Below are positions 3,534 to 4,210 of a DNA stretch of 4,313 nucleotides, one piece after another. The stretch comes from a virus (lineage: Duplodnaviria; Heunggongvirae; Uroviricota; Caudoviricetes). Below the pieces are notes generated by a model. That model saw only the letters and a list, made by a program, of their open reading frames with translations. It ran no database searches and was not told the origin of the DNA. The stretch lies in IMG/VR virus record IMGVR_UViG_2734482533_000006; one strand, 5' to 3'. The translations under genes were made by a program, and so were the position numbers. The first letter of the stretch is position 1, and each line of letters starts with the position of its first letter.

Positions 3534-3869
3534 TTACCCCCTGAAGCCTGGCGGGATCGCACTGTCCGGCAACGAGACGGTGTTAACCTGTCGGAGCAAC
3601 GTCTCAGGCCGAACACCTTTCGGCGCGAACAGGCCCTGGTATTCATTGGCGATGCTGTGTCGAATCACCTGCTCAGGTGTAAAACCCTGCTGACGGAATT
3701 TTTCCAGTTCCCGTATCGCCCCGTTAGCGCCCTGCTCCGTTCGAATCGGTTTTCGCAATGCCTGTCTGAACCGGACCCACTCATGCCAGAGTGTTTCCGG
3801 CAACCAATCGGGCAGCTCAATAGCCTCCGGCTCGAATTTTTTAGACGCTCGTTTTTGGCGAGGGGGAGA
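3534..3869 (-). pseudogene. C-terminal fragment of a phage replication initiator: DnaT-like domain (...LPDWLPETLWHEW...VNTVSLPDSAIPPGFRG).
   Basis: Frame is open from the TGA at 3872-3870 down to the stop at 3536-3534. There is no ATG; the track's start at 3803 is a TTG. The C-terminus closely resembles the E. coli DnaT C-terminus as I recall it (PDWQPD..., VNTVSEPDSQIPPGFRG). Same frame as, and 6 nt upstream of, the DnaC-like gene, like the chromosomal dnaT-dnaC arrangement. Confidence 0.6.
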
Positions 3870-3882
3870 TCAGTATTTAGAT

Positions 3883-4005
3883 CTTCCTCTTCCTCTTCCT
3901 CTGGTAACGCTTTTTGATCCGTTTGTGTAACGCTGGCAGCGTTACCTTTTCGTTTCAGTTCGCGTATTTTTGTTACTCGCTCGTTTGTAACCGCCCGTTT
4001 TTTTT
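3883..4005. repeat. Candidate replication origin inside the initiator gene: (CTTCCT)x3 hexamer repeat (3883-3900), GTAAC/GTTAC half-site repeats (3904, 3927, 3941, 3972, 3987), a perfect 19-bp palindrome GTAACGCTG-G-CAGCGTTAC (3927-3945) and a T8 run (3998-4005).
   Basis: Repeats read directly from the sequence. Their position between the N- and C-terminal domains matches the known placement of ori-lambda within the O gene. Initiator binding is inference. Confidence 0.3.
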
Positions 4006-4210
4006 AGAGCTTTTTCCGTTATGACGTTCAAAGTTAGGTAGAGAAAGCCCTCCGTCATTTTCGACCAGCCATCCAACCTGAATTAACGCATCAGCAAAAC
4101 CAGACATAAAAGTGATGCGATCTATTGCACTTTTTGTAACGCCGCGAGCGTTACAATCTGCATTACCGTCTATCATTTGTTGATCCGCCCATGCCCAGAA
4201 GCGAATAACC
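3973..4210 (-). pseudogene. N-terminal fragment of the same replication initiator (presumed origin-binding domain), 5'-truncated by the IS insertion.
   Basis: Frame-0 ORF ...VIRFWAWADQQMIDGNADCNARGVTKSAIDRITFMSGFADALIQVGWLVENDGGLSLPNFERHNGKSSKKNGRLQTSE* ends at 3973. The track's GTG start (4236) lies inside the putative IS terminal repeat, so the native start is missing. It is out of frame with the C-terminal fragment. Confidence 0.5.

Follow-up and report, generated by a model that had tools for sequence, protein, structure and literature searches.

Background

The C-terminal domain of DnaT forms filaments on single-stranded DNA, which mark the site of helicase loading (PMC13377028), and the fusion of such a domain (DnaT_C) to a lambda-O-like N-terminal domain has already been described in DopC (PMC5509034). 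Two further systems are close to the locus considered here, the YdaU-YdaV module of the Rac prophage of E. coli K-12 and the O protein of phage lambda with its origin, ori-lambda. As regards gene loss, five insertion sequences (IS) have expanded in every Shigella species, and IS600 is one of them (Hawkey et al. 2020, PMC7373316). Half (50%) of the pseudogenes of S. sonnei are caused by IS, and a further 12% carry an IS together with other lesions, which was read as decay after the first hit (PMC7373316).

We analysed a stretch of 4,313 nucleotides (IMG/VR virus record IMGVR_UViG_2734482533_000006), which is referred to as the window throughout. With a probability of roughly 0.93, the minus strand of positions 3534-4210 is what remains of the replication-initiator gene of a Rac-like lambdoid Shigella sonnei prophage; the gene has suffered three independent inactivating mutations and is dead. 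The pattern is that of the Shigella pseudogenes with an IS and further decay (PMC7373316), and the only difference is that a prophage locus is affected here instead of a metabolic gene.

One gene in three reading frames

Translation of the minus strand over 3534-4236 gives three frames, each of which holds one piece of the gene:

4006-4210, minus strand: fragment of the N-terminal winged-helix domain, corresponding to codons 36-103 of the intact 262-aa protein
3868-3997, minus strand: basic/acidic linker in the second frame, RAVTNERV...LPEEEEEEDLNTD, corresponding to residues 106-148 of the intact protein
3534-3860, minus strand: fragment resembling the DnaT C-terminal domain, in the third frame, corresponding to about residues 153-262; it ends in IPPGFRG, with the stop at 3534-3536
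3973-4236, minus strand: 87-aa open reading frame (ORF) as called by gene callers, taken from the ORF listing

The N-terminal frame is open from 4236 to the stop at 3973-3975, the linker frame is open across the interval between the N- and C-terminal pieces and reads ...KKRAVTNERVTKIRELKRKGNAASVTQTDQKALPEEEEEEDLNTDLP..., and the C-terminal frame opens at 3869 and closes with the tail ...VNTVSLPDSAIPPGFRG. These boundaries agree with the preliminary description, which had also placed the homopolymers correctly, namely a T8 run at 3998-4005 and a G5 run (C5 on the minus strand) at 3862-3866. Chance cannot account for this fragmentation into ORFs, because the alignment with intact homologs puts frame-shifting indels exactly at both of these tracts. 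The first 35 codons of the initiator gene are absent from the window. The called 87-aa ORF consists of nine IS-derived codons, the native fragment of the N-terminal domain, and eight out-of-frame codons followed by the stop, and it ends in ...HNGKSSKKNGRLQTSE. The C-terminal frame has no in-frame ATG and was not called as a gene in any assembly.

The intact gene and its relatives

In E. coli FDAARGOS_944 and COL60J the same region is a single coding sequence (CDS) of 789 bp, encoding 262 amino acids, with a ydaT-family gene on one side and the DnaC-like ydaV on the other; in one of these records it carries the name 'phage replication initiator YdaU family protein' (PGAP). Loci L001 and L002 contain such intact 262-aa CDSs. 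When both indels are counted as differences, the window is 97-98% identical in DNA to the intact single-ORF copies over the shared stretch. Compared with FDAARGOS_944 over the shared 4.1 kb, it differs by only five substitutions and two indels, and both indels fall inside the initiator gene. In a megablast search of 5,426 complete E. coli genomes, 681 of which cover at least 80% of the query, matches always start at window position 4211 and the subject is eight bases longer than the window.

A search of a large protein collection detected 1,205 relatives. From these, 33 full-length homologs (255-315 aa, 52-96% identical) from Escherichia, Shigella, Citrobacter, Salmonella, Klebsiella, Enterobacter, Serratia and Yersinia were aligned, and each is encoded by one uninterrupted ORF. 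They align from end to end, with a conserved N-terminal domain, an LPEEEEE linker and a C-terminal domain. At the site of the A-run the alignment shows the stretch SSKKRA, in which K104, R106 and A107 are invariant and S103 is nearly so. Since the homologs align as one polypeptide, the two parts do not normally form genes of their own; had they done so, the reading as a single broken gene would have been refuted. A common E. coli variant of 376 aa (P0057) has the N-terminal domain (1-149) and the C-terminal domain (161-262) as in the 262-aa protein and about 125 extra residues inserted at the TDL/PLNPP point, which is the exact site of the 10-bp deletion of the window described below.

At 3124-3164 the window has 41 N in place of 316 bp of the DnaC-like ydaV; this run is a gap or a mask and not a deletion, because ydaV is complete (248 aa) in the S. 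sonnei assemblies that are identical to the window. An intact gene for QueH (epoxyqueuosine reductase) occupies 1371-2057, and a toxin gene of the hokD type occupies 988-1200; both are ordinary cargo of lambdoid prophages and are identical to the E. coli copy.

Domain architecture compared with DnaT, YdaU and lambda O

The intact protein belongs to phrog_2509 of the PHROGs database, 'replication initiation protein' (E 1e-89); its C-terminal half also matches a 'primosomal protein' PHROG, and residues 77-236 match PHROG 678, 'replication initiation O-like'. Pfam contains no family at E<=10 for the intact protein or for either half, and a sequence search of PDB with the N-terminal half gave nothing meaningful. 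The AF2 model predicts a winged-helix N-terminal domain, in which residues 1-35 form the first two helices, a disordered linker, and a C-terminal domain with helices 176-188, 196-211 and 216-225 at a pLDDT of around 90. We consider the initiator role of the intact protein a prediction from homology and annotation.

The DnaT-like character of the C-terminal part, proposed in the preliminary description, holds at the level of the domain only. A phmmer search matches this part to the C-terminal domain of DnaT, both in PDB 2ru8 (E 9.5e-5) and in 9zbt (E 3.2e-4). Residues 92-179 of E. coli DnaT align with residues 170-262 here, including the tail VNTVS-PDS-IPPGFRG; an acidic linker is present in DnaT too, and the domain, a putative binder of single-stranded DNA, is predicted to have three helices. 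On the other hand, the DnaT N-terminal domain is absent from this protein, and NCBIfam NF002770 gives 16-17 bits against a cut-off of 201, with only the last 19 residues matching. The intact protein is best described as a predicted phage initiator carrying a DnaT_C-like domain, a combination known already from the lambda-O-like DopC (PMC5509034).

The comparison with the Rac module shows the same gene order, with a cI-like repressor, a cro-like gene, ydaT, the initiator and ydaV. The C-terminal 124 residues are 81% identical to those of the Rac-type YdaU, and BLASTP similarity is confined to residues 139-262. Rac-type YdaU has DUF1376 (PF07120) at residues 22-104 (92 bits), while the protein considered here has neither a Pfam match nor BLASTP similarity in that part, and the two N-terminal domains are unrelated. 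Of the characteristics of the YdaU/DUF1376 family, the N-terminal PF07120 is missing and the C-terminal domain and the position upstream of ydaV are shared. The relation to Rac-type YdaU is that of a domain mosaic and not of an orthologue. A copy that is 96% identical is annotated as ydaU in the GenBank record 'Escherichia phage Rac'.

The likeness to lambda O and ori-lambda lies in the layout: two domains, repeated site-like sequences in the gene beside a flexible linker, and then a gene for a helicase loader. The C-terminal domain is also common to some phage proteins annotated as 'replication protein O'. The differences are that no Pfam O-protein domain is found here, that the loader is DnaC/IstB-like and not lambda P, and that the sites in the putative origin are palindromes (TGTAACGC-N-GCGTTACA) instead of lambda iterons.

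Insertion of IS600

The IS insertion and the two indels are located as follows:

4211-4313, plus strand: end of the 1264-bp IS600, comprising the terminal repeat TGAGGTAGCC... and, from 4275, the beginning of orfA; exact match to the IS copy of locus L003
4208-4210, minus strand: one of the two GGT copies (gene strand) that make up the 3-bp target-site duplication, from comparison of the L003 flanks with the intact gene
3998-4005, minus strand: second lesion, A8 run (T8 on the plus strand), from alignment to intact genes
3861-3867, minus strand: third lesion, the sole remaining copy of the 7-bp repeat TCCCCCT, from alignment to intact genes

In L003, one of the assembly loci that carry the same junction, the whole element can be read. 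It is 1264 bp long, has the ends TGAGGT...ACCTCA, contains ORFs with HTH_Tnp_1 and rve domains and is flanked by a GGT duplication; it is 99.5% identical to E. coli copies annotated 'IS3-like element IS600 family transposase'. The size of about 1.26 kb, the TG...CA ends with imperfect terminal inverted repeats, the orfA/orfB transposase and the 3-bp target duplication are all those of IS600 (IS3 family). The element is inserted after nt 106 of the gene, and homology to intact copies ends at window position 4210/4211. The L003 flanks read ...GGGAAGGT|IS|GGTTATTCGC..., and the intact gene has a single GGT. The IS/gene junction has no exact match in the contig set with one genome per species.

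The preliminary description called the 5' end of the gene IS-truncated. The IS is indeed at the 5' end; what does not hold is the truncation, given a simple insertion with its GGT duplication and the survival of the 5' 106 nt. 'IS-interrupted' is the more accurate term. As the window ends inside the IS, the 5' remnant beside it lies out of view, and its survival is seen in related assemblies: of the six that have contigs of roughly 1 Mb or longer, five keep the 106 nt beyond the IS. This remnant is called there as a 41-aa ORF. A promoter scan of 3400-4313 gave a single hit, which is on the plus strand at 4226-4254, within the end of the IS and upstream of the point where orfA starts (4275); no promoter-like site was found on the gene strand of this interval.

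Several observations concern the IS copies themselves. Positions 1-105 of the window are the opposite end of a second IS600 in direct orientation (exact match), and the window is therefore a 4.1-kb inter-IS segment, with only the terminal 103 and 105 bp of the two copies present. In L003 the left copy lacks a target duplication (its flanks are AAT and GTT) and the DUF1367 gene is truncated there, which suggests an IS-mediated deletion or rearrangement at the left copy. The sequence to the left of the IS that interrupts the initiator gene also varies: in L004 (left IS flank at 4763, on a 4.8-Mb contig) it is unrelated, and in the scaffolded short-read assemblies L007 and L010-L012 (left of 4806) the IS adjoins a ydaU/ydaV module of the Rac type, and L007 has an N at the junction. 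Behind these divergent left flanks is either a rearrangement between prophages, mediated by IS600, or an artefact of scaffolding.

The two internal frame breaks

Alignment to the intact homologs located both indels, a gain of two bases at 3998-4005 and a 10-bp deletion at 3861-3867. Intact genes have an A6 run at the first site, which forms two AAA codons (Lys104-Lys105), and the A8 of the window produces a +2 frameshift. It had been noted that one extra A in the A8 run would join the N-terminal domain to the linker; the frame arithmetic of this proposal is correct, and the actual event was a gain of two from A6 and not a 1-nt change. Among the complete E. coli genomes that match the A-run segment (n=162), the best identity is 98.0%, which corresponds to the 2-nt gap, and none reaches 99%.

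At the second site intact genes read TCCCCCTAAATCCCCCT, in the context GATC-TCCCCCTAAA-TCCCCCT-CGCC. Only one TCCCCCT is left in the window: the ten bases TCCCCCTAAA, which include one copy of the direct repeat, are deleted, and this shifts the frame. A 1-nt change near the C5 run (3862-3866) had been suggested for this position, and while its location and frame arithmetic (+1) stand, its nature does not, as the alignment shows 10 bp lost between two TCCCCCT repeats and rules out a homopolymer slip at the C5 run. None of the complete E. coli genomes matching the deletion segment (n=647) exceeds 90.9% identity, the value that corresponds to the 10-nt gap. Neither small lesion is therefore present in any complete E. 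coli genome that matches these segments, and intermediate alleles, with the A8 or the deletion only, were found in none of the 5,426 genomes.

Another allele of the initiator gene is present in L014 (1755-2161), L015 (1561-1967) and L016 (1431-1868), the product of which is labelled S. sonnei. It has no IS at codon 35-36, its A-run is an A9 that keeps the frame and adds one Lys, and an independent IS600 is inserted after nt 408. The A9 allele and the second IS600 site mean that the A-run is polymorphic (A6/A8/A9) and that the gene has been hit by IS600 at least twice.

Repeats within the coding sequence

Three repeats within the gene are relevant here:

4134-4156, no strand assigned: palindrome TTGTAACGC-N5-GCGTTACAA, a putative iteron in the coding sequence, from a repeat search on the intact locus
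3925-3947, no strand assigned: second palindrome, located in the linker, GGTAACGCTG-C-CAGCGTTACA; a further half-site is at 3904-3910; from the repeat search
3883-3902, minus strand: hexamer repeat (GAGGAA)3, encoding an EEEEEE tract, from alignment of the window with L003-L012

Three palindromes of the form TGTAACGC-N(1-5)-GCGTTACA are located just upstream of the start codon, in the coding region of the N-terminal domain and in the linker (2865-2885, 3056-3078 and 3265-3283 in L001). GTAACGC occurs six times in the window against 0.33 expected, and five of these six lie within 3904-4154. The palindromes encode the peptide N-A-x-S-V-T, and the motif varies in copy number, with extra copies in homologs that have insertions. 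They are probably variable-number origin iterons embedded in the coding sequence, in a layout like that of lambda ori.

The hexamer repeat is a small variable-number tandem repeat. The window has three units, and four of the assemblies (L005, L006, L008 and L009) are longer by 18 or 24 bp near 6400, which makes six units in three S. sonnei assemblies and seven in one. Among the homologs there are also independent frameshift alleles, mostly from unlabelled assemblies (P0118, P0126, P0133, P0143, P0146 and P0108), that arise through 1-nt slips in C5 runs or in the downstream A6, or through contraction of GAGGAA followed by a stop; in P0108, labelled S. flexneri, the frame is lost after RTEQG. 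The linker appears from these alleles to be a slippage hotspot and a recurrent site of inactivation.

How the gene was lost and whether other readings are tenable

In the intact prophage, the winged-helix domain would recognise the palindromic origin sites inside and just upstream of its own gene, the DnaT-like domain may then engage the unwound strand, and the helicase would be recruited together with the DnaC-like YdaV, the product of the next gene downstream. IS600 is inserted into codon 35-36 and stands between the bulk of the gene and its promoter, start codon and first 35 codons. The A6 run may have become A8 by replication slippage, and slipped mispairing between the two 7-bp direct repeats could have removed the 10 bp. 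Since IS600 separates the 5' end, two frame corrections are needed and the C-terminal frame has no ATG, no full-length product can be made. The earlier proposal of a cryptic-prophage pseudogene, one initiator gene broken by an IS at the 5' end and two frame disruptions, is thereby borne out: the homologs are uninterrupted single ORFs, the frame-breaking lesions are present in the window, and they are common to all ten related assemblies.

Two alternative readings are extremely improbable. One of them, raised already in the preliminary description, is that the internal frame breaks are sequencing or assembly errors in low-complexity tracts, so that the gene would be intact apart from the IS. 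An 8-base homopolymer is a classic site of error and the run of N in the window may derive from a draft assembly, but the IS junction, the A8 and the 10-bp deletion are all present in 10/10 of the independently assembled loci (L003-L012), five of which are on 4.8-Mb contigs and one on a 984-kb contig. Comparison of the same locus between assemblies, proposed as a check, thus gave a uniform answer. Left and right of the N run, four Shigella sonnei assemblies also agree with the window in every base. The 87-aa product itself has exact matches on 492 contigs (481 collection blocks) under the name 'putative bacteriophage protein [Shigella sonnei]', and these matches take in the first codons, derived from the IS, as well as the tail in the shifted frame. 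In addition, a 10-bp deletion is no miscount of a homopolymer, and the insertion of the IS disrupts the gene on its own. The lesions are inherited, fixed features of the S. sonnei lineage and not sequencing errors. The other of these readings is that programmed ribosomal frameshifting, or transcriptional slippage at the A8 run, joins the pieces during expression, or that they are normally separate genes, and it deserves no more credit. Runs of at least eight A permit some slippage of RNA polymerase, a length that the A8 run reaches, and all three frames are open over their own segments. Against this, the 33 homologs (52-96% identity) are single ORFs with K104 and R106 invariant, and the slippery tract and the split frames are not conserved among them; in-frame A6 and a single ORF in all homologs exclude programmed frameshifting. 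Two shifts would moreover be required, one of them at a 10-bp deletion that offers no slippery site, and the promoter and the start codon lie beyond the 1264-bp IS.

A further reading accepts the lesions and supposes that a fragment is still expressed and functions, either the 87-aa ORF, read from a GTG within the end of the IS, or the C-terminal piece that resembles DnaT, for instance by interfering with replication or with incoming phages. It could draw on the routine calling of the 87-aa ORF and its conservation across the lineage, and on ydaV and other downstream genes still being intact. We nevertheless regard it as very unlikely. The 87-aa product is without the first two helices of the winged helix (residues 1-35), its GTG overlaps the sole Shine-Dalgarno-like sequence and leaves no usable spacing, the C-terminal frame is uncalled and without ATG as described above, and the promoter scan leaves the gene strand without a promoter-like site in 3400-4313. 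Conservation within a clone as young as S. sonnei is uninformative about selection.

Implications

The locus is of an already known kind, a multiply hit pseudogene in an IS-riddled cryptic prophage, and represents ordinary gene decay. The repeated, independent loss of the initiator does encourage us to ask whether, instead of neutral decay, there was selection against a working initiator and origin in a prophage no longer able to excise. This reading builds on the number of hits: IS600, A8 and the 10-bp deletion in the lineage of the window; a second IS600 together with A9; the frameshift in S. flexneri; and the C5 and A6 slips elsewhere. It is argued from the harm that firing of the origin in situ would do. 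We regard it as a doubtful possibility; if it were true, the slippage tracts of the linker (A6, (GAGGAA)n, two C5 runs and a second A6) would be the usual route of inactivation.

For annotation, the region should be described as one phage initiator pseudogene of the YdaU-C/DnaT_C type, disrupted by IS600 and two indels, and not as 'bacteriophage proteins' of 41 and 87 aa; beyond annotation the finding has little import. The three lesions, the copy number of (GAGGAA)n and the length of the A-run are lineage markers that could serve in the typing of S. sonnei, and the locus provides a clear worked example of the Shigella pseudogenes in which an IS is accompanied by further decay. The intact family is of more interest than this dead copy, as it combines a predicted winged-helix domain and probable iterons inside the gene with a DnaT-like C-terminal domain.
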